Assembly: GCA_947259735.1 (NCBI GenBank)
Contig: CAMYNN010000001.1
Location: forward strand, 114,515 to 178,514
Source: Thermodesulfovibrionia bacterium
GTDB taxonomy: Bacteria; Nitrospirota; Thermodesulfovibrionia; UBA6902
Length of the DNA stretch: 64,000 bases
Direction of reading: 5' to 3'
Below are positions 13,499 through 49,226 of the stretch, piece after piece. The translations under genes were made by a program, and so were the position numbers. Under the pieces are notes generated by a model, which worked only from the letters and a program-made list of their open reading frames with translations, was not told the DNA's origin and searched no databases. Numbering within the stretch: position 1 is the stretch's first letter; every line of letters starts with the position of its first letter.

Positions 13499-13891
13499 AT
13501 GGATATAAATGGTTACAAAAAGACGGTTCTTGCTAATACTGATGAAGTGCAGATTATTTTTATGCTCTATGAAGGAGCATTGAACCATTTAAAGATTGCC
13601 AGGAAGAAAATAGAAAACGGTGATGTTCTAACAAAGGGACATCATTTCTCAAAAGTAACTGCCATTATCAGTGAACTCTCTAATGTATTGGATATGGAAA
13701 AAGGGGGGGACATTTCAAAAAATCTTAGAAGCCTCTACGAGTACGTTCTGCAGCGACTCCTTTATGCAAATCTCAACAATGATATTCAGGCCCTTGAAGA
13801 TGCTCAAAAGGTTGTTCAGACAATCAGGGACGGGTGGCAGGAGATGATGCAGAAGATGAAAAATTCTGTAGAGGTCCATGCAGCAGTATAA
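13499..13891 (+). CDS. fliS: Flagellin export chaperone FliS (copy 1)
   Basis: 130 aa. The FliS four-helix signature (VQIIFMLYEGALNHLKIARKKIENGD ... NLRSLYEYVLQRLLYANLNND ... TIRDGWQEM). Confidence 0.9.
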   Translation: MDINGYKKTVLANTDEVQIIFMLYEGALNHLKIARKKIENGDVLTKGHHFSKVTAIISELSNVLDMEKGGDISKNLRSLYEYVLQRLLYANLNNDIQALEDAQKVVQTIRDGWQEMMQKMKNSVEVHAAV

Positions 13892-19697: not shown

Positions 19698-19894
19698 ACC
19701 TTTACAGGTTTATCCTGCCTCAATATACGAAAGAAGACAGGAAAATATTTCCGCAGCAGGAAGACCTTTCCGGGAATATATGAAATTCAGGAAAAGCCGC
19801 AGACGGGTCATCTTCCGTTCGAAATAAAGGAGAACCCCTTCAATTATGGCCACTTCAGGAGTGGGCCTGCTTAAAGCACATGTGCATGCAAATC

Positions 19895-19910
19895 GGGCAC
19901 AAATATTGCT
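19895..19910 (+). promoter_or_regulatory. sigma-54 type promoter upstream of the second fliS
   Basis: GGGCACAAATATTGCT has GG 19896-19897 and GC 19908-19909 at canonical spacing. It lies ~60 nt upstream of ATG 19970. A 10-bp palindrome GCACATGTGC lies just upstream (19875-19884). Confidence 0.55.
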
Positions 19911-19969
19911 TTTTAAAAAATAGAAAAAACATTTCGTCAATCTATGAAAGAAAAGAGAAGGAGGGAACC

Positions 19970-20338
19970 ATGGGAGGAACAGCACTGAAACCACAGGCGG
20001 AGCAGAGGGGAACCGATGGAGTGCAGATCGTTTCAATGCTCTATGACGGTGCAATCAACTTTATCGGTAAAGCAAAAGAAAAGCTGGACATAGGCGATTC
20101 TTCCGGCAGGTCTTTATATATCAAAAAGGCAACGGATATTGTAAAAGAACTGTCGGGCTCTCTCAATATGGACACCGGAGAAATTGCCGTAAATCTCAGG
20201 AGCCTTTACGATTTTGTTCTTGACAGTCTTGCAAAGGCAGACCTGCAGAACAATCGTGACGCACTCAGTGATGCAGAGAAGGTCATTGATATCATCCGCA
20301 GTTCCTGGCAGGAGATGCAGGAAGCAGGAAAAGTATAG
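19970..20338 (+). CDS. fliS: FliS-family flagellin chaperone paralog (copy 2, 122 aa)
   Basis: The ORF track starts at 19880 but that extension covers the promoter. ATG 19970 follows GAAGGAGGGA. It aligns along its length with copy 1 (VQIVSMLYDGAINFIGKAKEKLDIGD ... NLRSLYDFVLDSLAKADLQNN ... IIRSSWQEM), at roughly 40-45% identity by eye. Confidence 0.8.
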   Translation: MGGTALKPQAEQRGTDGVQIVSMLYDGAINFIGKAKEKLDIGDSSGRSLYIKKATDIVKELSGSLNMDTGEIAVNLRSLYDFVLDSLAKADLQNNRDALSDAEKVIDIIRSSWQEMQEAGKV

Positions 20339-20680: not shown

Positions 20681-20751
20681 TTGAAACCTAAAGTAAACTT
20701 TAAATTTTTTTAAACTCTTTGCAAAGGCAAGAGAAAGTACTAACCATTTCG

Positions 20752-21021
20752 ATGAAATTAGTATTTACGATAAACGATGTAAGTAAAGTAACCGGTGTTC
20801 CGGTCCATACGATAAGGTTCTGGGAAAAAGACTTTAAGAATTATCTCAAACCCGGCAAGACACCGGGAGGTCAGAGACGATACTGCCTCAGGGATATCAG
20901 AATCATAGAGAAAATAAAATATCTGCGCTATCAGGAGAAGTATACGATAGCAGGTGCATTGAAGGAAATAAGGAAGCATGAAGGGTATGAACTTGGTGCA
21001 GGAGCACAGGCACATGTCTAA
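20752..21021 (+). CDS. Small MerR-family HTH protein (89 aa, DNA-binding domain only)
   Basis: The ORF track starts at TTG 20719; ATG 20752 gives MKLVFTINDVSKVTGVPVHTIRFWEKDF...GGQRRYCLRDIRIIEKIKYLR, a typical MerR N-terminal HTH with no effector domain. Its stop overlaps the next gene's ATG (ATGTCTAA). Confidence 0.7.
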   Translation: MKLVFTINDVSKVTGVPVHTIRFWEKDFKNYLKPGKTPGGQRRYCLRDIRIIEKIKYLRYQEKYTIAGALKEIRKHEGYELGAGAQAHV

Positions 21022-22003
21022 ACCGTCTGTATCAGTCATTATTCGCTGCTGCAATGAGCAGGAGCACATAGGACGTCTGCTTACAGGTATTTATGAACAG
21101 ACCCTGAACGACATTGAAGTGATAATCGTTGATTCCGGTTCCACAGACAGGACTCTGTCAATAGCTTCCTGCTTTCCCGTTATCATCAGGACAATAAGTG
21201 CGCAGGAATTTTCATTCGGTCACGCACTGAATGTGGGATGTAAAGCGGCCAATGGGAACATCATAGTATTTGCCAGCGCCCATGTATATCCGACTCACCG
21301 CCGCTGGCTGGAGACACTGATTGCGCCGTTCAATGATCCTAAAGTCGCTCTCACATATGGAAAACAGCGTGGAAATGAAATGAATAAATTTTCTGAGCAT
21401 CAAATATTTTCAAAGTGGTTCCCCGAGCATTCATTGTCCGTTCAGCGGACACCCTTTTGCAATAACGCCAATGCGGCGATTCCAAGAGATTTGTGGAAGA
21501 TTGTTCCCTATGATGAGGGATTAACGGGACTTGAAGATATCGACTGGGCAAAGCGTCTGATTGGCAAGGGATACTATTTAGCATATGCGGCAGAAGCAGA
21601 AGTAATTCATGTCCATAACGAAAGATATATGGGAACGCTTAATCGCTACTACCGTGAGTCAATTGTATTCTGTCAGCTTTTCCCCGAACAGAAATTTCGG
21701 ATGAAGGATTTTTTGTGGCTCTGGTTTATCAATACATTGAACGACTATGCACATGCATTCCGTAAGGGGAAACTGTTCGGCAATCTATTGAGCATTCCCC
21801 TGTTCAGATTAATGCAGTTCTGGGGAACATACAGAGGGTATGCGCAGAGGGACCCTGTCAGCTCCGCGCTCAGGCAAAGGTTCTATTATCCCAACGGACT
21901 GTCCAGGCCAGCGGACAATGGCAATAAACCGGATACGTCTGATAATGACTATATTGATTACATGAAAATAGAGAAAAATGAAAAAATCGAACAACCTCAT
22001 TGA
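21014..22003 (+). CDS. Glycosyltransferase family 2
   Basis: MSKPSVSVIIRCCNEQEHIGRLL...EVIIVDSGSTDRT...GLEDIDWAKR has GT-A/GT2 hallmarks. The start is taken at ATG 21014 (track 20978) to avoid a long overlap with the MerR gene. Confidence 0.8.
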   Translation: MSKPSVSVIIRCCNEQEHIGRLLTGIYEQTLNDIEVIIVDSGSTDRTLSIASCFPVIIRTISAQEFSFGHALNVGCKAANGNIIVFASAHVYPTHRRWLETLIAPFNDPKVALTYGKQRGNEMNKFSEHQIFSKWFPEHSLSVQRTPFCNNANAAIPRDLWKIVPYDEGLTGLEDIDWAKRLIGKGYYLAYAAEAEVIHVHNERYMGTLNRYYRESIVFCQLFPEQKFRMKDFLWLWFINTLNDYAHAFRKGKLFGNLLSIPLFRLMQFWGTYRGYAQRDPVSSALRQRFYYPNGLSRPADNGNKPDTSDNDYIDYMKIEKNEKIEQPH

Positions 22004-22646
22004 TATATCGGTACCTCTGGATTCAGCACTGCCTACCTGGCCGGGAAGTGAAGGGATGAAGGTGGAACGGCTTTCCTGTTTTGAAAACGGAAATGACGTG
22101 AATGTATCCAGGCTCACATGCGATGTGCATACAGGTACTCATATCGAGACGTCTCTTCATTTTCTGCCCGACGGAGAGAGTGTAAGTCAGATTCCTCTGG
22201 ATATATTGGTAGGGAATGCGTATGTCGCGTATTTGCCGGAGGCCGACATCATTACACCCGATGATCTTGAGATCCTCGAAATACCCGATGAAACAGAAAG
22301 ACTTCTGATGAAGACAGGGAACTCAAGGTTGTGGGAAGAATGGGGAGACATGTTCAGACAGGATTTTGCGGCCCTTAATTCGGATGCTGCTGAATGGATC
22401 GTTGAGAGAGGTATCAAGCTATTCGGTGTTGACTACCTTTCAGTTGAATTATACAGGGAACCGGCCTCGCGCAATCACATTACGCTTTTAAGGGGAGGGG
22501 TTGTCATACTTGAAGGGCTTAATCTATCGATGGTTAATGCGGGTATGTATGAATTAATCTGCCTTCCCATAAAACTTGTCGGTGCTGAAGGTGCGCCTGC
22601 GAGAGCGGTTTTGAGAACGAAGAGCGCGTGCTGCTGCGGTGATTAA
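21978..22646 (+). CDS. Putative cyclase / kynurenine-formamidase-like metal hydrolase
   Basis: 222 aa. Cyclase-family motif HTGTHIETSLHF (compare HxGTHxDxPxH) near the N-terminus. Overlaps the upstream GT2 by 26 nt. Confidence 0.65.
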   Translation: MKKSNNLIDISVPLDSALPTWPGSEGMKVERLSCFENGNDVNVSRLTCDVHTGTHIETSLHFLPDGESVSQIPLDILVGNAYVAYLPEADIITPDDLEILEIPDETERLLMKTGNSRLWEEWGDMFRQDFAALNSDAAEWIVERGIKLFGVDYLSVELYREPASRNHITLLRGGVVILEGLNLSMVNAGMYELICLPIKLVGAEGAPARAVLRTKSACCCGD

Positions 22647-23351
22647 ATGATGAAAAATGTGAAAAAACCAAGAATTGCTGCACTGGTTCCCATGAGACAT
22701 AACAGTGAACGGGTGCCGGGGAAGAATTATCGTCTTCTTGGGGACAGGCCTTTGTATCATCACATAATCGGAAGCCTTCTTGAATGTCCGCATATTGATG
22801 AAGTATGTATTGACACGGACAGTCCTTTTATCCTTGATGACGCGCCAAGAAATTTCCCTGTCAGGCTGATTGAACGACCTGCCCATCTGCGTTCGGGATT
22901 TGAACCCATGAACAATATTCTGCTTTACGATGTAACTGAAATAGAAGCTGACTTCTACCTGCAGACACACAGCACTAATCCGCTTCTTACAACAGAGTCC
23001 ATATCAAAGGCGATCGAGACCTTTCTGAGGCCCGGTGATCATGATTCACTCTTCGGGGTTACCCGTTTGCAGACACGCCTTTATGACAAACAGGGAAATC
23101 CCATCAATCATGATCCTGATGAATTGTTAAGAACACAGGATTTGCCCCCTGTTTTTGAGGAGAACTCAACGATATATATTTTTTCAAAAGAGATTCTCAA
23201 AGAGCGTGGAAACCGCATAGGTCAAAAACCCATAATGTTTGAAATTGACCGTGAGGAAGCGGCAGATATTGATGAAGAAATGGACTTTCTATTAGCGGAA
23301 TTTCTTTATAAAAAAACGAGAAAGGCGAAGGTGTTCAGTAATGAAATTTAA
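22647..23351 (+). CDS. Acylneuraminate-type cytidylyltransferase (CMP-sugar-acid synthetase; NeuA/PseF/PtmB-like)
   Basis: 234 aa. N-terminal ALVPMRHNSERVPGKNYRLLGDRPLYHHIIGSLL resembles the CTP_transf_3 nucleotide-binding motif. Size is typical of the family. Confidence 0.8.
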   Translation: MMKNVKKPRIAALVPMRHNSERVPGKNYRLLGDRPLYHHIIGSLLECPHIDEVCIDTDSPFILDDAPRNFPVRLIERPAHLRSGFEPMNNILLYDVTEIEADFYLQTHSTNPLLTTESISKAIETFLRPGDHDSLFGVTRLQTRLYDKQGNPINHDPDELLRTQDLPPVFEENSTIYIFSKEILKERGNRIGQKPIMFEIDREEAADIDEEMDFLLAEFLYKKTRKAKVFSNEI

Positions 23352-24297
23352 GGTACTTATAACTGCCCCGTACATGCAGCCCGTAATAAAGGAGTACATG
23401 CATTTTTTTAATGATAACGATATTGAGGTCATAGTGCCCCCGGTCAAAGAGCGTCTTTCCGAACAGGAGCTACTGGAAGTTATCGGCGATATTGACGGAG
23501 TAATTGCCGGCGACGACCAGTTTACATCAAAGGTCTTAAGGTCAGCTCCCAGACTGAAAGTGCTTTCGAAGTGGGGCACGGGCATAGACTCATTCGATCA
23601 GATAACAGCGAGAGAACTCGGCATTGCCATCCGCAATACACCGGGGGCCTTTAATGAGCCGGTGGCGGACCAGGTACTCGGATATATGCTTGCATTTGCC
23701 AGGCGCATCCCGTGGATAGATGAAAGAATGAAGGACGGTGAGTGGGAAAAGCTGAACTGTTTTTCACTTTCTAATCGTACACTGGGAGTCATCGGTACAG
23801 GGAATACAGGGAAAGCGGTTATAGAGCGTGCAAAGGCATTTCAAATGCGATTACTCGGGAATGACATTGAGGAAATGCCTTCTGAGTTTATTGATGAGTC
23901 AGGTATCCAAATGGTGGACAAAGAGGACCTGCTGCGCGCGAGTGATTTTGTCAGCCTGAACTGTGACCTTAATCCCTCAAGCTATCACATCATGGGAAGA
24001 TCTGAATTTTCACTCATGAAACGGACGGCTTACTTTATAAATGCTGCGAGAGGGCCGCTTGTCGATGAACCTGCTGTTATTAAGGCCCTGCAAAATAAAT
24101 TAATAGCCGGTGCGGCCCTTGATGTCTTTGAAGATGAGCCGCTCCCCCTTGACAGCCCATTGCGCTCAATGTCCAATGTACTCCTCTCTCCTCATAACGC
24201 GAACAGCAGTGAGGAGCACTGGATGAGAATTCATGAGTCAACAATATCGAACTTACTGGCAGAGCTGAATAAAGAACCGGTTTCAGTAGCAGGTTAA
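23341..24297 (+). CDS. D-isomer-specific 2-hydroxyacid dehydrogenase (NAD-binding)
   Basis: 318 aa. GVIGTGNTGKAV Rossmann motif and the catalytic region NAARGPLVDEPAVIKALQNKLIAGAALDVFEDEP. Confidence 0.85.
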   Translation: MKFKVLITAPYMQPVIKEYMHFFNDNDIEVIVPPVKERLSEQELLEVIGDIDGVIAGDDQFTSKVLRSAPRLKVLSKWGTGIDSFDQITARELGIAIRNTPGAFNEPVADQVLGYMLAFARRIPWIDERMKDGEWEKLNCFSLSNRTLGVIGTGNTGKAVIERAKAFQMRLLGNDIEEMPSEFIDESGIQMVDKEDLLRASDFVSLNCDLNPSSYHIMGRSEFSLMKRTAYFINAARGPLVDEPAVIKALQNKLIAGAALDVFEDEPLPLDSPLRSMSNVLLSPHNANSSEEHWMRIHESTISNLLAELNKEPVSVAG

Positions 24298-24309: not shown

Positions 24310-25047
24310 ATGAAATCAGCACTCGTAACAGGAGCTGCAGGAGGAATTGGCAAGGCGGTCTGCGAGCTTTTAGAGAGGAAAGGGTACAAGGTTATCGGTG
24401 TAGACAGCAGGGCAGCCTCTGGTCTTGATTATGAAGTAATTCAGTTTGATGTAAGCAGACTGCGGAACGGGGATTCAGAATGCAAAGAATTCTATGAAAA
24501 AGCGAAAAGTTTTGCTGATGGAAGGCTGGATGTCCTCGTAAATAATGCAGCTGTCCAGATTGTTAAATCGGTCGAGAATCTTACAACGGCAGACTGGGAC
24601 GTGACGCTTGACACGAACCTGCTTGCTCCATTCTGGCTGACACAGATGTTTTTGCCTATGCTGCGTGCGGCAAGAGGAAGTGTTGTGAATGTTTCGAGTA
24701 TCCACGCGGAGCTTACAAAAAGGGAATTTACCGCTTATTCCACAAGCAAGGGAGCTCTCCTTTCGCTGACTCGAGCGCTCGCGCTGGAACTTGCGCCCGA
24801 TGTTCGGGTGAATGCAGTACTCCCGGCAGCCACGGATACACCGATGCTGCTCGATGGATTTAAAGATAATCCAGACGGACTGAAGGAATTGGGGTCCTAT
24901 CATCCATTGGAACGAATTGCCAGTCAGGATGAGGTAGCCCGGGCTGTTTTCTTCCTGGCCAGTCCGGAAGCCAGTTTTATGACAGGGGCTTCAGTAAATG
25001 TTGATGGAGGTATAGGAGCGTGTCTGCACGACCCGGTTAAAAGGTAA
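24310..25047 (+). CDS. Short-chain dehydrogenase/reductase (PtmA-like)
   Basis: 245 aa. TGAAGGIGKA cofactor motif, NNAA, and catalytic YSTSK. Confidence 0.85.
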   Translation: MKSALVTGAAGGIGKAVCELLERKGYKVIGVDSRAASGLDYEVIQFDVSRLRNGDSECKEFYEKAKSFADGRLDVLVNNAAVQIVKSVENLTTADWDVTLDTNLLAPFWLTQMFLPMLRAARGSVVNVSSIHAELTKREFTAYSTSKGALLSLTRALALELAPDVRVNAVLPAATDTPMLLDGFKDNPDGLKELGSYHPLERIASQDEVARAVFFLASPEASFMTGASVNVDGGIGACLHDPVKR

Positions 25048-25050
25048 TAC

Positions 25051-27834
25051 ATGAGCTTTCAGTTAAAATTAGATCAATGTAGTTCAAGGCTATCTCCTTC
25101 TTCTGGAATCAGGCCCAATTTTCTCGGAATAGGGGCAGCTAAGGCGGGTACGACAACTGTCGCAAGATTGCTGGCCGGTCATCCGGAAATCAGCTTCCCG
25201 GTCAATGGGACCAAGGAGCTGCATTATTTTGATGAGAAATATGCAAAAGATGATGACGCGTGGTATTTCAGTCAGTTTGAGAATAATATTGCAATTGGAG
25301 AATACACTCCCAGCTATATCTTTGATCCCGAATGCCGCGACAGAATTTATAAAACACTGGGCGGGGACATCAAGTTTATTGTAGCGCTCAGAAATCCTGT
25401 GGACAGGGCCTTTTCACACTATTGTCATGCCGTGAATAACTGGTGGCAGGACAAATACAGAGCACTGAACTATCCTGTTGAAGGTCTGAGCTTCGAAGAT
25501 GCCATAGATAAGGAAAGTGAACGGCTTGGAGCCGGTAACTATCACATTCGGCATCTCAGTTATTTCAGCAAGGGGTTATACGCTGAGCAGCTGAAAAGGT
25601 TCTTTGAAGTATTTCCCAAAGATAATTTTTATATCTATCTATATGAAGACTACATTGCCTCACCTGCGCACATACTGAAAAATATATGCACATTTCTGGG
25701 AGTTGATGAGCATTTTGAATTTCAGGGTACTGATAAGGTTTATAACACCCAGACAAACAGGATAATGGCCCATTCAACCCGGAGGAAATTGAATGAGAGA
25801 TACGGGAATTCAATAAAGGAGCTTGAAGACCTGCTTGGCAGAGACCTCTCGGTCTGGACTGGAAAAGGGAAACGACATAGCATCGGGGCGGCTGCATACA
25901 CTCATGAAAAGGTGAATTTTTATGGCATGAGAAAAACAATGAAAGATCCCATATTTGTCGTTGGCAGTCCACGCTCAGGCACTACGCTGCTGCAATGTAT
26001 GTTAAGCGTGAGTGAAAACGCATTTTCATTGCCTGAGACCCATTATTTCTGTTCAATACTTCCCCGCCTTGGAATTCGACCGACTGACAAAATTAATCAG
26101 GATAATGTAAAAGACATAATAGATCTTTTTTATGAGAAGATGGTCCTCGATATACCTGAATATTTAATGTCTGAGTTTTTTAAAAAGGCGGAAAGCGGGC
26201 AATTAACAGCAGTTGATATTTTGATAGATATATTCGATCTTTTCCGGCCCGCTGATGATAGTGCAAGAATCCGACGGGTGATTGAAAAGACCCCTTTTCA
26301 TGTACAGTACCTCAGGGATATTGTGGAAAGTTTTCCTGATGCCAAGTTTCTAAATATAATCCGTGATCCCCGTGACGTAGTCAGTTCAAGAATGATGATG
26401 CCCATGGCGCATACAAAATCCTTCAGATTATACGCGCTGGAATGGAACAGGTCGATAGGGCAGGCCCAGCGGTTCCTTGGAGAATTCCCAGGCAGTCTTT
26501 TATCCATTCGATATGAAGACCTTGTAGAAAAGACCGGGTGCACTTTAAATGAAGTATGTCAATTCCTGAACCTGCCCTTTCGTGATGAGATGGTATCGAA
26601 ATTTGCCATGAAGTATGAATCCTGCACACTTCACAAAACAGAGAGCTGGAAGGAGGAAGTTAAAACAGGGCGGATCCGCAATAAGAGAGGGATCTGGCAG
26701 AACAGAATTACTCCTGCTACTGCATGGTTAATTGAGCAGGAAACAACAGAGCTAATGAAATTATATGAATATGCACCATCTGTCCGGCCTTCGCAATCAG
26801 AGATCAACAATGCATTGGAGAATGAGGATTTAGTATTAAAACAGGAAAGCGGCATAGACACAATTATTCAAATAGGGACGTATTATTCGGAAGAGAGGAA
26901 ACATGCATCAGCTCGTGAGATCTATGAAAATGCTATTCTTTTTGAGAATATTACTCGTCAGGACCGAAACAAGTTACTGCTCAGGATTGGAAACATTCTA
27001 TTGGACGAGGGTAGATATCATGATGCCGAAGGGAAATTTGCGAAGGCCCTGGCAATCAATGGCCTCCCGGAAATTGAGCGTTTTCACGTATTGCTTGGTT
27101 TTGGCAGAAGCTGTTTTGCCGAGAAGAAATATCATGAGGCTGAACAAAAATTTGCAGATGCCCTTTTACTTGGAGAAGTCCCTCAAAAGGAAAGGTTTAA
27201 CGCTCATCTTTTTCTTGGGAGATGTTATGCCGCTCTGAAGAGATATGTTGATGCCGAGGATCAGTACAGGGAAGCATTGTCTATGGATGTACCGAACGAG
27301 ACGAAGATAAGCACCGTACTTCACCTGGGGAAATGTTTGTCGGAGCAGGGGAAGAGTGAAGAAGAAAAACAGGAGTACTTAAGTGCCCTGTCAGAGGGCG
27401 GCATTGCAGCCATATGGAAGTACAGGTTATTGAACAGGCTCGGGATACTGGCTTTTCAATGCGGCACATATGAGAGTGCAGAAAAAAGGTATACAGAAGC
27501 ATTGTCCATAGAAGGTGTGCCCGGAACAGACAGGTATCATGCGCTTACTGGTCTTGGCAAGTGCTGCATTGCCCAAAAAAAATATGATGAGGCGGAGAAA
27601 CAGTTTGAAGAAGCCTTGTCCTGTGACACCATTTCAGCCACATCAAGAATTGCCGCGGCAGAAATGCTTGTGGACTGCTGTTTATTGCGCGGCAAGTTAA
27701 AGAAGGTAGAGCAGGTCTGCGAAATGGTAATGCTACTGGAAGGAATTGATGAGCAGCTCATGAGGAAATTTATCATACAGGTGAAGGAAAAAATTAAGAT
27801 GGTGTCCCTTCGCAGGGGAGGCTCAAATGCATGA
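25051..27834 (+). CDS. Tandem double sulfotransferase fused to a long TPR array (927 aa)
   Basis: Domain 1 has a 5'-PSB loop GAAKAGTTT and 3'-PB motif ALRNPVDRAFSHY (~25.1-25.9 kb). Domain 2 has a 5'-PSB loop GSPRSGTTLL and IIRDPRDVVSS (~25.95-26.7 kb). The C-terminal ~330 aa are repeated ~40-aa TPR-like units (…YHDAEGKFAKALAI…YHEAEQKFADALLL…YVDAEDQYREALSM…). Confidence 0.8.
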   Translation: MSFQLKLDQCSSRLSPSSGIRPNFLGIGAAKAGTTTVARLLAGHPEISFPVNGTKELHYFDEKYAKDDDAWYFSQFENNIAIGEYTPSYIFDPECRDRIYKTLGGDIKFIVALRNPVDRAFSHYCHAVNNWWQDKYRALNYPVEGLSFEDAIDKESERLGAGNYHIRHLSYFSKGLYAEQLKRFFEVFPKDNFYIYLYEDYIASPAHILKNICTFLGVDEHFEFQGTDKVYNTQTNRIMAHSTRRKLNERYGNSIKELEDLLGRDLSVWTGKGKRHSIGAAAYTHEKVNFYGMRKTMKDPIFVVGSPRSGTTLLQCMLSVSENAFSLPETHYFCSILPRLGIRPTDKINQDNVKDIIDLFYEKMVLDIPEYLMSEFFKKAESGQLTAVDILIDIFDLFRPADDSARIRRVIEKTPFHVQYLRDIVESFPDAKFLNIIRDPRDVVSSRMMMPMAHTKSFRLYALEWNRSIGQAQRFLGEFPGSLLSIRYEDLVEKTGCTLNEVCQFLNLPFRDEMVSKFAMKYESCTLHKTESWKEEVKTGRIRNKRGIWQNRITPATAWLIEQETTELMKLYEYAPSVRPSQSEINNALENEDLVLKQESGIDTIIQIGTYYSEERKHASAREIYENAILFENITRQDRNKLLLRIGNILLDEGRYHDAEGKFAKALAINGLPEIERFHVLLGFGRSCFAEKKYHEAEQKFADALLLGEVPQKERFNAHLFLGRCYAALKRYVDAEDQYREALSMDVPNETKISTVLHLGKCLSEQGKSEEEKQEYLSALSEGGIAAIWKYRLLNRLGILAFQCGTYESAEKRYTEALSIEGVPGTDRYHALTGLGKCCIAQKKYDEAEKQFEEALSCDTISATSRIAAAEMLVDCCLLRGKLKKVEQVCEMVMLLEGIDEQLMRKFIIQVKEKIKMVSLRRGGSNA

Positions 27835-28951
27835 ACCCCTTGTTTCCATAGTGGTCCCCTGCTATAACGGTGCTGCGACGTTAAAAAGGACACTGTTCTC
27901 TATTAAAAATGAGCAGTACTCGAACTTTGAAATTATTATAGTAGATGACGGCAGCACTGATAGTTCCCCGGACCTCATCCGGCAGTTTGAAGAGTGGGAC
28001 TCAAGATTTAAGAGCGTGACGCAGGAAAACAGTGGAGTCTCAGCCGCGAGAAACAGGGGGGTAACGGTTGCCTCCGGTGAATATATAGGTTTTCTTGATG
28101 CCGACGACCTGTTACTTGAGAATAGTCTGGACCGGAGGATGAAGGTGCTGATTGAAGAGAGCGATCCTGAGATGCTCGGCGTTTTCTGCCCGGCTGTCGT
28201 TGTTGATGACAAAAACAATGTGTTGCGTTCCACCGCCTTGTTTAACTCGCCCCTGCCAAATGAGAGGGTATACTTTTCTACGGTAACAAACAATCCATTC
28301 GGTACCTGCTGCGTGATTGCTAAAAAGAAAGAGATAGTAAGTGCTGGCGGATTTGACGAGTCCCTGACAAACGGTGAAGACTATGATCTGTGGTTCAGGA
28401 TGATGAGGAAAGGAGGTTACTTTAAGAAAGTCAACTCCTGCAAGGTGGCAATAACGTATCATCCGGAAAGTGTGACCCAGGCAAAAATACTTAAGCATCA
28501 TAGACAGTGCAAGCAGGTAATGGAAAAAATATTTTCGACCAGCATGGACACGGCCATTGAGGAATTCATGAATGGTTACGGCAGTGCCGTATACTTCTTG
28601 GCACTGACGAAAAGGGCATTCAGCGCTTCCATTAAGTGTGTTATTAACGGTCAGCATGAAGCAGCCAAAGAGATTTCTGAAGATATAAGCTGGCGCATGA
28701 TTGAGCAGATATCTCATGAAGAGCTGGATCACATTGTGAAATATGAAACATTAAAGGCAACGTGTAAACCTGAGAATGAATGGCTTAGTGTATGGGAAGA
28801 TGTCAAAGAAAGGGTGATAAATTATATTGAAGAGTTAAAGGCTGGTTTTGGCGGGGAATGCAGTAGTCTTGCCGTGTTGCTGCAAAGATACAGGGAGCAT
28901 AATCGCAGCCCTTACGGTGTCGAGAGGAGGCGTGATGGTCAAAAGGTCTGA
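27827..28951 (+). CDS. Glycosyltransferase family 2
   Basis: VSIVVPCYNGAATLKRTLFSI...FEIIIVDDGSTDSS...FLDADD...GEDYDLWFRM. Overlaps the sulfotransferase stop by 8 nt. Confidence 0.85.
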   Translation: MHEPLVSIVVPCYNGAATLKRTLFSIKNEQYSNFEIIIVDDGSTDSSPDLIRQFEEWDSRFKSVTQENSGVSAARNRGVTVASGEYIGFLDADDLLLENSLDRRMKVLIEESDPEMLGVFCPAVVVDDKNNVLRSTALFNSPLPNERVYFSTVTNNPFGTCCVIAKKKEIVSAGGFDESLTNGEDYDLWFRMMRKGGYFKKVNSCKVAITYHPESVTQAKILKHHRQCKQVMEKIFSTSMDTAIEEFMNGYGSAVYFLALTKRAFSASIKCVINGQHEAAKEISEDISWRMIEQISHEELDHIVKYETLKATCKPENEWLSVWEDVKERVINYIEELKAGFGGECSSLAVLLQRYREHNRSPYGVERRRDGQKV

Positions 28952-30956
28952 AAATATTAACATCGTCCTGAATTTTCATAAGGGTGACCAGGTTTCCGCA
29001 GAAAAAATGCTTGAACTCCTCATGTCAGTTGATGAGGGGCTTGAATGCACATATTATCTGCAGTATGGAGACAGTATCGGGAGTATATGTATATCAGATA
29101 CGCTTCTGCAGTTTATGAACCGGAAAAAAGCACTTTTTTCAAATGAACTCCCGGACATCAAAGTCCCTCAGGAAATGATTGACAATGACCCGAACCTGCT
29201 TCGTTATGGAGGGAATCAGGCGATACGAACCAGATCACAAAAAAAGAGCATCTTCGAATGGAACCTCTGTGTTTATAAATACATTCAGCTGCTTGATTCC
29301 TTTCTGATGATAGAACCTGACTGCGTTATTTTAAAAGAGGGCTGGCTTCGTGACATATTCGAAGCATGGAGAAATTATGATGGCCCGATATTCGGGCACC
29401 TGAAGCATGGGCTGATCGGACATACATTAATTCCTACACACTGGGCGGGGTGTTCCCTCTATGACTGCAGAAAGCTCAGAAACTTGCCCCTTGAACACTA
29501 TTTTTATAACAGATATGAGAATCCGTGGTGGCAATACAGGGATGGAGAGGGCACAGAGACTGCCGGTAACTGTTTCTATGGTCCTGTTATAAGCGGGTAT
29601 GACGTGGCTTATGATTATTTTCTTTTTGCCCTGTATTGGAAGGAAAAGACCGGCTTGAACGATCCCTTTCAGTGGCCTCTGGATACATATGAAGCAAGAA
29701 AGGATATTATCTTTTGCGACTTCAAAACGAGGATGAGCGGGGAGGATATATTCCGGGGATTTGCGAACAGGCTCCCGCTCATGCATGGTGTCAAGGACGA
29801 CGAAGTCAGGGAACTGATGATTAAATATTTTTACAGCAAAGCTGAGAATAAACTTCCGGGCATGTCATATGAATTAAGCGGTCCGCCGGACAGTCCGGTC
29901 AATAATAATAAGAAGAATCTGAGCATGAAAGACATGAAGAATATATTTGAAGGTCAGCGCTGCTTTATTATCGGGAACGGACCAAGCCTGAAAAAAACCG
30001 ATATGCGGATTTTGAAGCATGAATACACTATTGGAACGAACAGGATTTATCTGAACTATGAGAATATGGGGTTCGAACCCACCTTTTATTGTTCAGTGAA
30101 TCCGCATGTGATCGAACAGTTTTCTGAAGAGATTAACTCAATAAAATCAGTCAAGTTCATCAGGAGTGAATCTCAGAGATATGTAAGGAACAGGTGGAAT
30201 ACGTTTTTTATGGAAAGCTCAGGCGCCCACGATTTCATCGAAGACCTTGAAACAATGCAGTGGTGTGAGGGGTGGACCGTCACGTACTGTGCCATGCAGG
30301 TGGCTTTTTATCTCGGATTTCATACTGTAATCCTGATTGGTGTTGACCACAATTTTCCTGCGTCGGGGGATCCCAATAAACTCGTAACGGCGGACAGCAG
30401 CGACGAGAATCACTTTCACCCTGAATACTTTGGAAAGGGAATACAGTGGCAATATCCGGATCTTGAGCGTTCTGAAAAATCATACGCCATAGCTAAAGAA
30501 ATATATGAAAAGAATGGAAAAATAATTCTGGATGCCACCATAGGAGGAAAGCTGAAAATATTCCCGAAGGCAGACTATAACGAACTCATAACTGTGCCAG
30601 GCAATGGTAATTCACCATGTGCATTCAATAAGATGGGAGAAGAGTTGTTTAATAACGGCGACATTGACGGAGCCATGAACTTATTTTTGAAGGCCGCTGA
30701 AATGGCTTCAGGATATGCAACGGCTTATAATAACCTCGGTGTTGTCTGTCTCCAAAAAGGTGATGCTCGCAATGCATCTGAGTTTTTTGCAAAGGCGTTG
30801 AACATTGATCCGAACGATCGCAGTGTTATTGTCAATTGCGGCAGGTTGCTCGAAAATTTTGAGAATACAGAGGATGCCAGGAAATTGTATTTGTCCTACC
30901 TTGAGAATCATCCGGAAGACGAAGAGATCACGGAATTATTATCGGTCCTGAGATAA
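28935..30956 (+). CDS. Maf/DUF115- or GT42-like CMP-ulosonate transferase with a novel N-terminal domain and C-terminal TPR (673 aa)
   Basis: The track starts at 28848; ATG 28935 follows GAGAGGAGG. The central motif CFIIGNGPSLKKTDMRILKHEYTIGTNRIYL ... VILIGVDHNF matches the GNGPSL signature shared by motility-accessory-factor (MptE-like/DUF115) proteins and Cst-type sialyltransferases. The N-terminal ~330 aa are unrecognised. The C-terminus is TPR (AYNNLGVVCLQKGDARNASEFFAKALNIDPND). Confidence 0.7.
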   Translation: MVKRSENINIVLNFHKGDQVSAEKMLELLMSVDEGLECTYYLQYGDSIGSICISDTLLQFMNRKKALFSNELPDIKVPQEMIDNDPNLLRYGGNQAIRTRSQKKSIFEWNLCVYKYIQLLDSFLMIEPDCVILKEGWLRDIFEAWRNYDGPIFGHLKHGLIGHTLIPTHWAGCSLYDCRKLRNLPLEHYFYNRYENPWWQYRDGEGTETAGNCFYGPVISGYDVAYDYFLFALYWKEKTGLNDPFQWPLDTYEARKDIIFCDFKTRMSGEDIFRGFANRLPLMHGVKDDEVRELMIKYFYSKAENKLPGMSYELSGPPDSPVNNNKKNLSMKDMKNIFEGQRCFIIGNGPSLKKTDMRILKHEYTIGTNRIYLNYENMGFEPTFYCSVNPHVIEQFSEEINSIKSVKFIRSESQRYVRNRWNTFFMESSGAHDFIEDLETMQWCEGWTVTYCAMQVAFYLGFHTVILIGVDHNFPASGDPNKLVTADSSDENHFHPEYFGKGIQWQYPDLERSEKSYAIAKEIYEKNGKIILDATIGGKLKIFPKADYNELITVPGNGNSPCAFNKMGEELFNNGDIDGAMNLFLKAAEMASGYATAYNNLGVVCLQKGDARNASEFFAKALNIDPNDRSVIVNCGRLLENFENTEDARKLYLSYLENHPEDEEITELLSVLR

Positions 30957-30996: not shown

Positions 30997-33900
30997 ATGG
31001 AAGAAATCAGAGTATCAGCAATAGTCTCAGCGTACAACAGCGAACGGTTCATGAGGGGCAGACTTCAGGACCTGGTCGGTCAGTCGCTGTTCCGAAAAAA
31101 GCAGCTTGAGATAATCGTTATAGACTCGAACTCTCCTCAAAAAGAAAAAGTAATTGTAGATGAATTCATGAAGCACCATAAAAATATCCGTTATGTACGG
31201 ACCGACGTCAGGGAGACTGTTTATGGTGCATGGAATCGCGGGATCACATTATCCAGAGGGAACTATGTTATTAATGCAAATTCGGATGACAGGTTTACAG
31301 CGGATGCTCTGGAAATAATGGCAGATGAATTTCAAAAGGACACCGATATTCATGCGGTATACGGAAACTGGCTTGTCACAAAAGTTGAGAACGATTCGAT
31401 CGAATCAGGAACTGAAAAGTTCCTGTTTGAATACCCGGAATTTTTCCCGCCTCTATTTTTTTACTATCAGATAACCTCTCATGCCGCAATGTTTATGAAA
31501 GATACATTTGACCTGATCGGCTGTTATGACGAAGAACTCAAAGTATTCGGTGACAGGGAGTTTATGTTCAGATTTATAACATCCGGACTCAACGCAAGAA
31601 AAATTGATTTGACGGTCGGATTGTATCTGGAAGGGAGGAACGGCGTAGAACGCTCTGAGGCTTCAGCTGAGAGGGAGTTTGCATCAATTCGTGATAAATA
31701 TCTGATACCGGAATATTTTGTCAGATTTTTCGGTTACGAGCATGTTCCACAGAAAAGAGACCTGGCTCAGCTCTATGCATATGTAGGTTCACGTGGATTC
31801 AGATTTCTCGCATGGAATGATACACCGGCAAGTGACATGCCCTTTGCGGCACAATTATTCATGTTAGCATTAAAACTTGATCCCCTTAATGTCGTTGCCT
31901 TGAATAATCTTGGCATTCTTCGGTGCCTGAATGAACAGCATGAGCTGGGAGTTGATCTGTTAAGCAAGGCATTCATGTGTGACCCCGCAGACACTATTCG
32001 CTCGAATGTTGATCTTGCAAAGCACCGTTCTGTTGAAGTTGAAGATTATCTCTGGATGCAGAAAGAACTGAAGAGCAGCAGGAGTTCATATCTATCCTCG
32101 GTGAATGTCCCGGAAACTGAGGTATCTGGACAAGCAAATACATGCACTCCGTCGGTCAGCATTATTATTCCGACCCGTAACCGAACTCATCTGCTTGCTG
32201 AAGCCATCGAAAGTGTGACGGGACAGACATACCGGGATTATGAAATAATCGTTGTGAATGATGGCGGTGATGATATCGCCGGTGTTACGAATACGTACGA
32301 AAAGGACTGCAGCATTACCGTACTGAATCTCGGAGAGAGGCAGGGCCCTGCAAAAGCGAGGAACAGCGGACTGGAAATAGCCAGGGGAAAGTATATAGCC
32401 TATCTTGATGATGATGACATTTATTATCCGGAACACCTGGAAAAACTGGTAGGGTATCTTGAACGGAATGACTGTAAGGTAGCATACACCGATTCTTATC
32501 AGGCATTCCAGAAATGGGAAAAAGATGAATATGTAACTACTGATAGAAGACTCGTTTACAGTGAGGACTTTGACAAACAAAGAATTCTTGTCATGAACTT
32601 TATCCCTACTCTGACTATTGCTCACAGGAAGGATTGCATTGAGGAGGTTGGTTGCTTTGATGAAGGTCTCGAGACACATGAGGATTGGGACCTCTGGATA
32701 AGGATGTCTCAGCAATACAATTTTCACCATGTAAAAGGTGTGACGGCAGAGTTCAGAACCCGTTCGAACGGATCGAGCAGCACGTCCTCAAAACGGTCTG
32801 ACTTTTTAGAAACCATGAAGATTATTCATGCCAGATATGCACATCTTGCTGAAGACGATCAGGTCCCCAGACAGCAAGAGCATATTGAAAATGAGCTGCA
32901 TAAAGAGTTATCAGTAATGGAGAACGCTGATTATACGAACACAGATCTGTCCATAGTAACGGCAAAAAATGGCACCAAATCTGTGAGAGTGAAATGCCGG
33001 AACGGGTCTCTTAAAACTCTTCACAGTCTTTACGATCCGGCGGCGGAGGCGCGAGTAATTGTCGATAAGTTTCATTTCGATGAGGGCGGCATTATCATCG
33101 TTTTAGGGATTGGACTTGGATATCATGTGGCTGAATTGAGTAAAAGATTTCCTGATGCGCAAATTGTGGTGATAGAAGCCATTCATGAAATCAGTAATCT
33201 GGCTTCCAAACACGGACCCTCCATTGATGACAGGGTAAAGATCTACACAGGACTTTCAACCGGCGATGCAGTGAGAAAGGTCACGGAACATCAAATGGAA
33301 GGTGGATTGAAGTCTCTGTCTGTGTTTCCGTTGGCAGCGGCAGTCTCTGCGTATTCAGTTTATTACAGGCCGATACTGGAGGCGCTGAATAAATCACTCT
33401 CAATAAAACTCTGGGAAAGGCTCAGGTACACGAAATTCAAAAAAGAAAGACTGAAGATCCTGCTGCTTGATACGGGATATTTTCTTGTCAGAGAAATTGA
33501 AAAAGGCCTCCAGTCCCTTGATCAGGATGTGTATCGTATGCCTGTAGGGACCGGTGAGAGGGGTGACGTTATCGTTTCAAGATTTATGGAAGCAGTGCTG
33601 AATTTCAGGCCCGATTTTCTGCTTACCATAAACCATCTTGGCTTCGATGAAGGGGGCGCCCTTACGGAACTTGTTGAGTCTCTTGAGATGCCTGTTGCTT
33701 CCTGGTATGTAGACAGTCCCACACTGATAGTCAATGCCTTTCAGAAGAACGTGTCTCCCTGGATGTCACTCTTCCTCTGGGATAAGTCCTATGTAAAAGA
33801 CATGAAAGACCTGGGTTTTGAATCAGTAGATCATTTACCGCTTGGGACAGATGAAAAGATCTTCAGACCCCTTACGGCAAGAAAGCACAGACATAAAATT

Positions 33901-34614
33901 CAGAAGTACCAGTGCGATACAGGGTTTGTAGGGAATTCCATGGTCGATGCGGTGAATAAATACACAGGAAGAGTTGATGAACGGCTGAGACCGCTCGTGC
34001 ATAAAATTGCCGATAAGTTCCTGCATTCTCATAATCGGTTTCCTTCAATCGGCGACTATCTCGGGGGGAGCGATCATGTTCTCTTTGATGATCTCGATGA
34101 AAAAGAAAAAATGGATTTCGAAGCGGCTGTTCTCTGGCAGGCAACCTTGAAATACCGTAATTCTCTCATTACTGAGCTTGCACGGTTTGACGCTGTAATT
34201 CATGGCGATCCTTCATGGGACCAGCTGTTAAAAGACAATGCTATCCGGTTGAAGCAGCCCCTTCATTACTATAAAGAGCTTCCTTTTTTTTACAATGCCT
34301 GCAAGGTCAATTTTAATGCTACCAGCCGGCAGATGAGGGAAGCGGTCAATCAAAGAGTATTCGATGTGCCTGCCTGCGGTGCCTTTCTGCTTACAGACTA
34401 TCAGGATTCGATGAATAATTTATTTGAAGTCAATAAGGAAATAATTGTGTACAGACACAGAGACGAAGTTCCGGAAATTATAAAGTTTTACCTGAAATAC
34501 CCCTGGGAGAGGGAGCGTGTTGCTTTGCTTGGGAGGGAAAGAGTTCTGAAAGATCATACCTATAAACACCGGCTTCGCGTATTAATTCAGAGTATGGAAC
34601 AAAAATATAAATGA
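30997..34614 (+). CDS. Multidomain GT2 + TPR + GT2 + Maf-N-like module + CgeB-like glycosyltransferase (1205 aa)
   Basis: GT2 no. 1 (VSAIVSAYNSERF...IIVIDSNSPQ...NANSDD). TPR (ALKLDPLNVVALNNLG). GT2 no. 2 (VSIIIPTRNRTHLL...YLDDDD...EDWDLWIRM). Then LHSLYDPAAEA...VLGIGLGYHVAELSK. The C-terminal domain FDVPACGAFLLTDY...LGRERVLKDHTYKHRL is typical of CgeB/DUF3880-type GT1-like proteins. Confidence 0.8.
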   Translation: MEEIRVSAIVSAYNSERFMRGRLQDLVGQSLFRKKQLEIIVIDSNSPQKEKVIVDEFMKHHKNIRYVRTDVRETVYGAWNRGITLSRGNYVINANSDDRFTADALEIMADEFQKDTDIHAVYGNWLVTKVENDSIESGTEKFLFEYPEFFPPLFFYYQITSHAAMFMKDTFDLIGCYDEELKVFGDREFMFRFITSGLNARKIDLTVGLYLEGRNGVERSEASAEREFASIRDKYLIPEYFVRFFGYEHVPQKRDLAQLYAYVGSRGFRFLAWNDTPASDMPFAAQLFMLALKLDPLNVVALNNLGILRCLNEQHELGVDLLSKAFMCDPADTIRSNVDLAKHRSVEVEDYLWMQKELKSSRSSYLSSVNVPETEVSGQANTCTPSVSIIIPTRNRTHLLAEAIESVTGQTYRDYEIIVVNDGGDDIAGVTNTYEKDCSITVLNLGERQGPAKARNSGLEIARGKYIAYLDDDDIYYPEHLEKLVGYLERNDCKVAYTDSYQAFQKWEKDEYVTTDRRLVYSEDFDKQRILVMNFIPTLTIAHRKDCIEEVGCFDEGLETHEDWDLWIRMSQQYNFHHVKGVTAEFRTRSNGSSSTSSKRSDFLETMKIIHARYAHLAEDDQVPRQQEHIENELHKELSVMENADYTNTDLSIVTAKNGTKSVRVKCRNGSLKTLHSLYDPAAEARVIVDKFHFDEGGIIIVLGIGLGYHVAELSKRFPDAQIVVIEAIHEISNLASKHGPSIDDRVKIYTGLSTGDAVRKVTEHQMEGGLKSLSVFPLAAAVSAYSVYYRPILEALNKSLSIKLWERLRYTKFKKERLKILLLDTGYFLVREIEKGLQSLDQDVYRMPVGTGERGDVIVSRFMEAVLNFRPDFLLTINHLGFDEGGALTELVESLEMPVASWYVDSPTLIVNAFQKNVSPWMSLFLWDKSYVKDMKDLGFESVDHLPLGTDEKIFRPLTARKHRHKIQKYQCDTGFVGNSMVDAVNKYTGRVDERLRPLVHKIADKFLHSHNRFPSIGDYLGGSDHVLFDDLDEKEKMDFEAAVLWQATLKYRNSLITELARFDAVIHGDPSWDQLLKDNAIRLKQPLHYYKELPFFYNACKVNFNATSRQMREAVNQRVFDVPACGAFLLTDYQDSMNNLFEVNKEIIVYRHRDEVPEIIKFYLKYPWERERVALLGRERVLKDHTYKHRLRVLIQSMEQKYK

Positions 34615-34626
34615 GGAAAAAATAGA

Positions 34627-34707
34627 GGCGAGAGGTCAGGGGCTAGGGGCAAGGGGTAAGTTCAAGATCATTCTTATCCTCCTGCCCAGTGCCCATAGCC
34701 TCTTGCC
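34627..34707. repeat. Heptanucleotide-repeat hairpin downstream of the 1205-aa gene
   Basis: The left arm GGCGAGAGG-TCAGGGG-CTAGGGG-CAAGGGG-TAAG (34627-34660) is an imperfect reverse complement of CTTAT-CCTCCTG-CCCAGTG-CCCATAG-CCTCTTG-CC (34673-34707). The loop is ~12 nt. It begins 13 nt after the stop codon. Confidence 0.5.
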
Positions 34708-34732
34708 GGGATTATTAAAAAAAACATCCTGC

Positions 34733-34802
34733 TTTCATGTCAACATATTGACGAAGCAATGAAATTCGCTCTTTCATGGTCAATAGAGACTGTATTGACG
34801 AT
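34733..34802 (+). promoter_or_regulatory. Two TTTCATG...ATTGACGA(A/T) units upstream of a sigma-54 promoter (putative enhancer/UAS)
   Basis: TTTCATGTCAACATATTGACGAA (34733-34755, containing the inverted repeat GTCAA-N4-TTGAC) and TTTCATGGTCAA-N10-ATTGACGAT (34772-34802). They lie ~95-160 nt upstream of the -24 element at 34896. Confidence 0.4.
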
Positions 34803-34894
34803 ATATGCAAATATCTCTTTAATTTACATAAATACAGACAGTTACAGTATAAGACCCCAAGTAAACTCTCTCCCTTTGCAATCCTATTAGATTT

Positions 34895-34910
34895 TGGCAA
34901 GATAATTGCT
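34895..34910 (+). promoter_or_regulatory. sigma-54 promoter upstream of the 591-aa Maf-N/CgeB gene
   Basis: TGGCAAGATAATTGCT has GG 34896-34897 and GC 34908-34909. It lies ~55 nt upstream of ATG 34966. Confidence 0.6.
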
Positions 34911-34965
34911 TTATACCATGCGTGGATAATTTTATGACGGGATTGCTGTTTCCTTGAAAGATACA

Positions 34966-41095: not shown

Positions 41096-41211
41096 AATGA
41101 ATAATATGATGTCCGTTGAAAAACATTGTCTCTGCTGTTTTGATGTAATGCATGAAATCGTGAAACCGGGTGAGAGAGAACTGCTCCCCTGCTTCCCGTA
41201 CTGACAGAATA

Positions 41212-49180: not shown

Positions 49181-49226
49181 TAAATGCCTGTCGTTCGTTT
49201 GAAGGAAAAGGAACATAAATTTTGTT

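Follow-up and report, generated by a model that had tools for sequence, protein, structure and literature searches.

A protein with two sulfotransferase domains and a tetratricopeptide repeat tail in a Nitrospirota flagellar locus: a candidate for flagellin glycan sulfation

We analyzed a 64,000-nt stretch of a Thermodesulfovibrionia bacterium (Nitrospirota; contig CAMYNN010000001.1, positions 114,515 to 178,514 of the forward strand), hereafter the window, meaning this whole stretch. A gene among its flagellar loci encodes a 927-amino-acid (aa) protein with two sulfotransferase (ST) domains, D1 and D2, and a C-terminal array of tetratricopeptide repeats (TPR). On balance, we favor reading this protein as a soluble, cytoplasmic, bifunctional sulfotransferase of the flagellin O-glycosylation pathway that would use 3′-phosphoadenosine-5′-phosphosulfate (PAPS) and add two sulfates to the O-glycan before export. 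The TPR tail, or a fused Maf-type glycosyltransferase in relatives, would bring the sulfotransferase domains to flagellin or to a Maf/flagellin complex ahead of the hand-over to FliS and type III export, as for the TPR domains of FlmG and Maf-1. D1 and D2 would use PAPS to place one sulfate apiece, at separate positions or on separate sugars of the O-linked glycan, and the exported filament would carry a strongly anionic sulfated glycan.

Two sulfotransferase domains in one protein

The open reading frame (ORF) translates to exactly 927 aa. Searched against Pfam, the whole protein matched Sulfotransfer_3 (2e-48), Sulfotransfer_1 (3e-26) and many TPR families, with TPR_12 the best-scoring of these (2.3e-21) and TPR matches spanning aa ~640-860. 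The D1 and D2 halves were also scanned one at a time against the curated cut-offs of 27 bits for Sulfotransfer_3 and 22 bits for Sulfotransfer_1. D1 alone (aa 1-293) scored 55.8 bits (9.7e-15) and 47.3 bits (2.3e-12) for the two families, respectively, and the D2 half alone scored 118.7 bits (5.7e-34) over profile positions 1-216 of 216 for Sulfotransfer_3 and 1.5e-14 for Sulfotransfer_1. An earlier sequence-only reading of this DNA had asked whether sulfotransferase hidden Markov models (HMMs) might miss either half; both halves lie above the curated cut-offs. The four motifs that it had quoted (GAAKAGTTT, RNPVDRAFS, SPRSGTTLL and RDPRDVVSS) are all present in the translation, and its description of two complete PAPS-type sulfotransferase domains in one protein is upheld by HMMs, sequence matches to solved structures and predicted fold, which agree. 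An AlphaFold2 (AF2) model of aa 1-600 built from 25 homologues had a mean predicted local distance difference test score (pLDDT) of 85.2, with a disordered linker at aa 273-294. All 50 of its top 50 Foldseek matches in the PDB were PAPS-dependent sulfotransferases, with target-normalised template modelling (TM) scores of up to 0.79.

K31, E56, H58, R114, S122, R308, E329, H331, R438 and S446 were invariant in five homologues containing both D1 and D2 (50-53% identity), and conservation of the PAPS-loop and catalytic-type residues of D2 reached at least 90% across 25 homologues. Because these residues are kept across homologues, both domains look catalytically competent. The same conservation makes it very unlikely that one domain alone is catalytic and the other a degenerate module binding PAPS, its product 3′-phosphoadenosine-5′-phosphate (PAP) or glycan, although model confidence was lower for D1 than for D2 and pseudo-enzyme domains are generally common in multidomain glycan enzymes. 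The term "tandem double sulfotransferase" had been used for this protein; the two domains stand, and the implied duplication does not. A blastp comparison of D1 with D2 aligned only 39 residues (E = 0.002) and their closest structures differ, so a recent tandem duplication was rejected. By these comparisons D1 and D2 are different branches of the sulfotransferase superfamily.

The maximum 19-residue Kyte-Doolittle mean of the protein was 1.31. Since a hydrophobic segment is absent, the protein is predicted to be cytoplasmic. Maf-dependent glycosylation is described in PMC4065374 as likewise cytoplasmic, occurring before chaperone binding and export.

The D1 domain

D1 carries the 5′-phosphosulfate-binding (5′-PSB) loop GAAKAGTTT (K31), the catalytic-type motif KELHYFD (E56, H58, D61) and the 3′-phosphate-binding (3′-PB) motif RNPVDRAFS (R114, S122). 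Its closest sequence match in the PDB was 3rnl, a bacterial sulfotransferase of unassigned function (1e-29), followed by heparan-sulfate 3-O-sulfotransferases (3-OSTs; ~6e-11, with 3-OST-3 at 5.6e-11) and the sulfotransferase domain of heparan-sulfate N-deacetylase/N-sulfotransferase (NDST; 5e-7). Foldseek gave TM scores of 0.79 for 3rnl and 0.70-0.78 for the 3-OSTs. GAAKAGTTT, RNPVDRAFS and KELHYFD align with GVKKGGT, RDPVTRAIS and EPHFFD of 3-OST-3, and D1 thus shares with 3-OSTs, the NDST sulfotransferase domain and 3rnl the fold, the 5′-PSB loop (K31), the 3′-PB motif (R114/S122) and an E-x-H-x-x-D motif. The Glu of the E-x-H motif is catalytic in 3-OSTs. Both 3-OSTs and NDST are PAPS-using carbohydrate sulfotransferases. 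D1 differs from these animal enzymes in that identity is only ~20-26% and in that it is part of a bacterial protein, predicted to be cytoplasmic, in which another sulfotransferase domain and a TPR array are fused to it. The acceptor of D1 is certainly not heparan sulfate.

The D2 domain and the nature of the acceptor

D2 contains the 5′-PSB loop SPRSGTTLL (R308, S309), the motif LPETHYF (E329, H331) and the 3′-PB motif RDPRDVVSS (R438, S446). Its PDB sequence matches were the sulfotransferase domain of CurM (CurM ST, 4gbm; 2.1e-14), an olefin synthase (OLS) sulfotransferase (2e-9) and the tyrosylprotein sulfotransferases TPST1/2 (5e-8 to 6e-6; TPST1 4.9e-8), with Foldseek TM scores of 0.68 for CurM ST and 0.6-0.7 for the TPSTs. 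SPRSGTTLL, RDPRDVVSS and LPETH align with SPRSGSTLL, RHPYSVIES and PPELH of CurM ST. Shared by D2, the CurM and OLS sulfotransferase domains (4gbm, 4gox) and TPST1/2 are a Sulfotransfer_3 fold, a PSB loop of the Arg type (SPRSGTT), P-E-x-H and the RDPxxxxxS 3′-PB motif. The substrate of CurM ST is a carrier-bound small-molecule intermediate. Unlike CurM and OLS, the D2 protein lies outside any polyketide synthase (PKS), and homologues of D2 are joined to Maf and not to an acyl carrier protein (ACP) or thioesterase.

The matches to TPSTs, together with a TPR array suggestive of a protein partner, are what would be expected if D2 were a protein tyrosine sulfotransferase of the TPST/RaxST type, acting on a flagellar or other protein picked out by the TPR. 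We give that explanation hardly any weight. D2 is nearer to CurM ST than to the TPSTs, and Sulfotransfer_3 is very broad: a D1-D2 profile searched against 1.84 billion representatives clustered at 50% identity returned 77,324 of them at E ≤ 1e-3. Flagellin, unlike a TPST substrate, lacks an exposed tyrosine here. Against 59 Ser/Thr, the window's flagellin contains just one Tyr (Y283), buried in the C-terminal D0 helix; the flagellin at a related locus (L122, see below) also has one Tyr, in its N-terminal D0 segment. Flagellin tyrosine sulfation, which calls for an accessible Tyr, was therefore set aside. The sequence-only reading had left the acceptor as a sugar or the protein; the single buried Tyr favors the sugar and speaks against the protein.

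The TPR tail

The ~40-aa TPR-like units reported to follow the sulfotransferase domains were recovered both as Pfam TPR families and as AF2 helices. The model of aa 591-927 (pLDDT 85.7) has 17 helices, corresponding to ~8 helix-turn-helix repeats and a capping helix, and the repeats fall in register when the sequence is set in 40-residue lines. Its best Foldseek matches were an 8-repeat consensus TPR, the TPR domains of OGT and SPINDLY (SPY), and LGN. By analogy, we propose that the tail docks the protein onto flagellin or onto the glycosylation machinery. In experiments, the TPR domains of FlmG from Caulobacter (PMC7591256) and of Maf-1 from Shewanella (bioRxiv 10.1101/2023.12.03.569772) bind flagellin and are needed for its modification in the cytoplasm. 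FlmG, Maf-1 and the 927-aa protein are alike in having a catalytic domain covalently joined to a TPR domain, but the cargo of the former is a glycosyltransferase and that of the latter a sulfotransferase pair, and the TPR likeness is one of architecture only. The window's own Maf protein also carries a C-terminal TPR. Generic bacterial proteins combining TPR with Sulfotransfer_1/3 are common (e.g., P0031, P0039, P0040 and P0049, of 519-543 aa) and differ in the absence of a Maf domain. In most of them a single sulfotransferase domain is combined with an N-terminal TPR.

Relatives of the protein and their gene neighborhoods

Relatives were sought among 5.8 billion proteins, and close relatives were few. 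Of the 150 representatives (clustered at 50% identity) that scored best in the profile search, only two (P0001, P0004) had D1 and D2 in one stretch. Relatives with at least 40% identity came from metagenome-assembled genomes (MAGs) of Chloroflexota, Thermodesulfobacteriota, Pseudomonadota and Opitutales. All carriers of close relatives were MAGs or metagenome contigs, and a cultured carrier was not found. Architectures comprised D1-D2 alone (P0002), D1-D2 fused to Maf (PF01973) and TPR (P0003-P0008), D2-Maf with or without a family 2 glycosyltransferase (GT2; P0011-P0013), and D1 fused to a radical-SAM domain (P0009).

Every locus with at least 40% identity and usable flank on both sides carries Maf, either fused or within 10 kb; the sole Maf-less locus at this identity (L006) has ~2 kb of flank on one side. 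Maf was found at none of roughly 150 loci with ≤36% identity, where contexts were unrelated. Four of the ≥40% loci adjoin flagellin and fliD. In two Anaerolineales-type contigs (L083, L084), a D2-Maf gene lies ~3 kb upstream of flagellin, fliD, flaG, fliS, flgB, fliE and fliF, with che genes upstream of D2-Maf, and locus L201 encodes a 1660-aa D1-D2-Maf fusion 3.7 kb upstream of flagellin and fliD. The layout is che-TPR-[ST-ST]-GT2-Maf in L001/L004 and fliC-fliD-fliS-GT-[ST-ST]-GT2-Maf in L122 (GT, glycosyltransferase). A Thermodesulfobacteriota MAG (L003/L121) encodes a 44%-identical orthologue of the same ST-ST-TPR build, followed by GT2 and Maf-TPR as in the window. The sequence-only reading had called for a survey of sulfotransferases near flagellar and Maf genes, and the survey found Maf fusions or flagellin/fliD/fliS adjacency in independent lineages. 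Because close homologues are fused to Maf or lie beside flagellin, fliD and fliS in these lineages, the predicted link to flagellin glycosylation is supported much more strongly than from the window context alone.

Part of the neighborhood recurs as well. In L086, a cassette of GT2, cyclase, CMP-transferase, dehydrogenase and short-chain dehydrogenase/reductase (SDR) genes stands directly upstream of an ST-ST-NKWYS-Maf-TPR fusion, matching the genes upstream of the sulfotransferase gene in the window (Table 1). L005, L127 and L128 have the order Maf-GT2-CMP-transferase-dehydrogenase-SDR-D1 with no cyclase, and L124 follows the order of L005 without a cyclase and without an SDR match. D1 occurred together with the CMP-transferase cassette at 6 of about 10 loci, too few for a strict link, and we regard the association as suggestive only.

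Some relatives showed further features. P0006, P0008 and P0013 (L086, L084) contain a PF10364 "NKWYS" domain with a P-loop-like YQMGKVGSS between sulfotransferase and Maf, which may be a third sulfotransferase-like module. In a Thermodesulfobacteriota MAG (L085, 10001-11977), a Maf-methyltransferase gene stands on either side of the D1-radical-SAM gene of P0009. flhG/fliA-like genes are close by, as are genes for an HpcH/HpaI aldolase and a methyltransferase-protein-kinase fusion. L005, from a Pseudomonadota MAG, has a second, weak sulfotransferase upstream of Maf.

Genes related to sulfate chemistry occur next to relatives in two forms. The first is a sulfatase (PF00884, 2e-62) directly downstream of the D1-type sulfotransferase of L005 (10787-12190). 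The second is cysC or cysDNC, beside more distant relatives of D1 at loci that are not flagellar. Two Paenibacillus loci (L008, L009) and a metagenome contig (L131) have cysC directly adjacent to a D1-like sulfotransferase (~28-36% identity where stated), at ~10.8-11.3 kb; in Paenibacillus L010, cysC lies ~8 kb from the D1-like sulfotransferase (~18.8-19.3 kb in that locus). In L066 and L142, cysDNC lies within a few kb of a D1-like sulfotransferase.

The flagellar locus and glycosylation island

The window belongs to the flagellar regulon of a diderm bacterium, and this regulon exceeds 75 kb. Immediately before the window starts, the same MAG (GCA_945786855.1) carries fliL-fliR, flhB, flhA, flhF and flhG. 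FlgI of the window is 74-77% identical to that of Nitrospirota MAGs, so that the organism most likely belongs to Nitrospirota. Upstream of flagellin are fliA, flgF, flgG, flgA, flgH, flgI, flgN, flgK, flgL, csrA and fliW. The filament genes follow in the order fliC, flaG, fliD and fliS, and after them a gene for a 1798-aa giant protein and a second fliS. The island then runs GT2, formamidase-like "cyclase", NeuA-like CMP-transferase, D-2-hydroxyacid dehydrogenase, SDR, ST-ST-TPR, GT2, Maf-TPR, two Maf_N/DUF3880 glycosyltransferases and a family 9 glycosyltransferase (GT9), downstream of which are a response regulator, a PilZ protein and motAB (Table 1). The flagellar setting claimed for the gene is thus confirmed on both sides, from flgN to fliS upstream and by motAB downstream. 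The Maf gene clusters with fliC, fliD and two fliS genes 5-14 kb upstream, and Maf_N domains are encoded at 30997-36729.

Table 1. Features of the 927-aa protein and of the surrounding flagellar and glycosylation genes, in window coordinates.
Feature	Position (nt)	Strand	Basis
Flagellin, presumed final acceptor; likely true start Met9 (nt 10820)	10796-11665	+	
fliD	12111-13481	+	
fliS paralogue 1	13499-13891	+	
Giant protein, 1798 aa, methyltransferase-GT2-GT2-GT4-TPR	14301-19697	+	
fliS paralogue 2; ~40-aa N-terminal extension in the listed ORF	19880-20338	+	
GT2, first gene of the five-gene cassette	20978-22003	+	
Kynurenine-formamidase-like "cyclase" hydrolase	21978-22646	+	
NeuA-like CMP-transferase	22647-23351	+	
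D-2-hydroxyacid dehydrogenase	23341-24297	+	
SDR, last cassette gene, directly upstream of the sulfotransferase gene	24310-25047	+	
D1-D2-TPR gene	25051-27834	+	Translation, Pfam, hydropathy
D1, sulfotransferase domain, heparan-sulfate 3-OST/NDST-like, aa ~20-272	25108-25866	+	Pfam, PDB matches, Foldseek, homologue conservation
Inter-domain linker, aa 273-294, predicted disordered	25867-25932	+	pLDDT <50 (AF2)
D2, sulfotransferase domain, CurM-ST/TPST-like (Sulfotransfer_3), aa ~295-585	25933-26805	+	Pfam, PDB matches, homologue conservation
C-terminal TPR-like solenoid, aa ~601-923, ~8 repeats of ~40 aa	26851-27819	+	Pfam, AF2, Foldseek
GT2 glycosyltransferase after the sulfotransferase gene	27827-28951	+	
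Maf-type (MptE-like, PF01973) putative flagellin glycosyltransferase, C-terminal TPR	28935-30956	+	
GT2x2/Maf_N/DUF3880/GT1-like	30997-34614	+	
Maf_N/DUF3880/GT1-like	34954-36729	+	
GT9 heptosyltransferase-like	36736-38478	+	

Genes from the first GT2 through the gene after Maf are tightly packed in operon-like fashion, with gaps of -44 to +40 nt. The stop codon of the sulfotransferase gene (TGA, 27832-27834) overlaps the ATG of the downstream GT2 at 27827 by 8 nt, with GGGAGG just 5′ of it, in agreement with the overlap reported earlier from the letters alone. Scans for promoter and terminator consensus sequences between 19.6 and 39.5 kb gave counts within shuffled expectation.

Several other features of the region were observed. 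The flagellin gene is immediately preceded by csrA (9720-9953) and fliW (9950-10357), so that this Nitrospirota-like diderm has the CsrA-FliW-flagellin partner-switch arrangement known from Bacillus and Campylobacter. A small ORF with a MerR-like helix-turn-helix (20719-21021; VSKVTGVPVHTIRFWEKDF...) overlaps the start of the first island GT2 by 44 nt and may encode a regulator specific to the glycosylation operon. Two motA/motB pairs occur in opposite orientation, at 40334-41922 (+) and 43029-44998 (-), with a PAS histidine kinase (41919-43028) between them, and there may be two stator sets for one flagellum. Between positions 1 and 42000 the + strand has a strong and uniform purine excess (GC skew +0.05 to +0.22, AT skew +0.05 to +0.21), and nearly all genes are on that strand.

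Donor sugar, PAPS supply and timing of the predicted sulfation

Donor sugar. The CMP-transferase scored 68 bits against the PseF model (cut-off 206) and matched NeuA structures at 4e-13. Cassette genes received no equivalog-level name from NCBIfam, with every score below cut-off. The "cyclase" is a kynurenine-formamidase-like metal hydrolase (PDB 1e-32; TIGR03035 157 bits, below cut-off) and might remove an N-formyl or N-acyl group from an amino sugar. More speculatively, D1 and this hydrolase could act in the manner of NDST, an amino sugar being first N-deacylated and then N-sulfated. kdsA, kdsD and kdsC are present ~20 kb downstream, at 48302-50818, and Mafs have been reported to transfer 3-deoxy-D-manno-octulosonic acid (Kdo) if their preferred sugar is missing (bioRxiv 10.1101/2023.12.03.569772).

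Several results weigh against sulfation of a flagellin glycan by this protein. Among the scanned window ORFs, NeuB/PseI, PseB and PseC-type Pfam families were absent, and no nonulosonic-acid synthase was found. Because Maf and a NeuA-like gene are present without NeuB/PseI, PseB and PseC, the CMP-activated donor sugar may be non-canonical or made elsewhere. Searches with Escherichia coli queries (tblastn) found no CysC, CysN or CysD homologues in the window, as the sequence-only reading had stated for PAPS synthesis genes, and the same queries found no cysC, cysN or cysD beside the flagellum-type homologues. Their only hits adjoined distant relatives of D1, in Paenibacillus and a few MAGs or metagenome contigs. 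Pfam families of adenosine-5′-phosphosulfate (APS) kinase and ATP sulfurylase were likewise not found among the scanned window ORFs. The TPR tails of the ST-ST, Maf and giant glycosyltransferase proteins of the island had no significant mutual similarity (best E = 0.36), and the sequence consequently gives no support to a docking module shared among the three. Flagellin binding by the TPR tail is proposed by analogy only. The host is an uncultured MAG, and the chemistry is predicted from sequence and models. Finally, bare D1 domains without TPR in similar cassettes (L005, L124, L127, L128) would fit action on a soluble precursor equally well.

The last point bears on when sulfation would occur. 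The sulfotransferase could act on a soluble precursor, either the CMP-activated ulosonic acid or hydroxy-acid of the cassette or another nucleotide sugar, before transfer by Maf or another glycosyltransferase, with the TPR doing no more than scaffolding a complex. D1 co-occurs with the CTP_transf_3/2-hydroxyacid-dehydrogenase pair, usually with an SDR, at six loci (the window, L086, L005, L124, L127 and L128), in four of which the sulfotransferase is a bare domain of ~256 aa without a docking module, and the best structural relative of D2 is CurM ST, with its carrier-bound substrate. Against these points, the sulfotransferase domains of the window, L003, P0003-P0013 and L201 are fused to TPR or Maf, which points to a protein acceptor as the site of action, and the ST-ST loci L001, L122 and L201 have no cassette within their flanks. 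We judge action on a soluble precursor unlikely. The bare D1 domains of the L005-type cassettes would in themselves fit either order, sulfation before or after transfer to flagellin.

The protein could also decorate another glycoconjugate, such as lipopolysaccharide (LPS), exopolysaccharide (EPS), a sheath or another glycoprotein, its flagellar position being incidental or a matter of mere co-regulation. The heptosyltransferase-like GT9 gene, the nearby kdsA/kdsD/kdsC and the missing nonulosonic-acid synthase are compatible with such a role, and distant double sulfotransferases (e.g., L087) reside in polysaccharide or lipid clusters. However, the Maf fusion or the flagellin/fliD/fliS adjacency recurs in independent phyla, genes for Wzx/Wzy, an ABC exporter or a lipid-carrier priming transferase are missing from the island, and every island product is predicted to be cytoplasmic, a prerequisite for glycosylating flagellin. 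On this evidence another glycoconjugate is a quite improbable target.

Comparison with known systems

Known decorations of flagellin glycans are acetyl, methyl, amidino and phospho-amino-acid groups, and sulfonate in Clostridioides difficile. The literature searched (~8.3 million papers) yielded no sulfotransferase or sulfated glycan for bacterial flagellin, only the sulfated N-glycans of archaeal (Halobacterium) archaellins and the sulfonated glycans of C. difficile, in line with the earlier statement that sulfated flagellin glycans are essentially undescribed in bacteria. One paper naming both flagellin glycosylation and sulfotransferases places the sulfotransferases in LPS O-chain islands, not in a flagellar island. 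The closest functional analogy to two domains acting at two positions is the Agl30/Agl31 pair of Halobacterium salinarum, and the comparison is one of function only. The Agl30/Agl31 glycan is expected to be assembled on a lipid carrier. Agl30 and Agl31 (VNG1056C/VNG1057C) are two sulfotransferases that each act on a different sugar of the N-glycan of archaellins and the S-layer protein (PMC11980604), and archaellins are among the Halobacterium glycoproteins with a sulfated N-glycan (PMC6591318). That system is archaeal and N-linked and consists of two separate proteins, one of them membrane-bound, whereas here the two domains form one bacterial protein. Type B flagellin of C. difficile carries sulfonated peptidylamido-glycans (PMC5207245), a precedent for a sulfur oxyanion on bacterial flagellin, although as a sulfonate (C-S bond) and not a sulfate ester.

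The enzymology proposed here is ordinary, and TPR-sulfotransferase fusions are common; what would be new is a sulfotransferase, heterodimeric in cis, recruited to the flagellin glycosylation machinery.

Implications for bacterial flagella

The analysis predicts an undescribed sulfate modification of bacterial flagella across several phyla. We tentatively extend it, with less confidence than for the protein itself, to at least four phyla of uncultured and mostly anaerobic bacteria, namely Nitrospirota, Thermodesulfobacteriota, Chloroflexota/Anaerolineales, Pseudomonadota and possibly Verrucomicrobiota. Their filaments might be sulfated by a dedicated sulfotransferase clade recruited through TPR or Maf fusion, which would place two marks on a glycan other than pseudaminic or legionaminic acid (Pse/Leg). 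ST-Maf fusions recur and can serve directly as a genomic marker, and the small gene set is open to heterologous reconstitution. Delivery of flagellin-modifying enzymes by TPR or fusion would then reach beyond glycosyltransferases to an enzyme of another kind. If the prediction is true, the filament would bear a dense, fixed negative charge, with possible effects on filament bundling and hydration, on phage adsorption, on recognition by innate immunity and, in sulfidic habitats, on the binding of minerals or metals.

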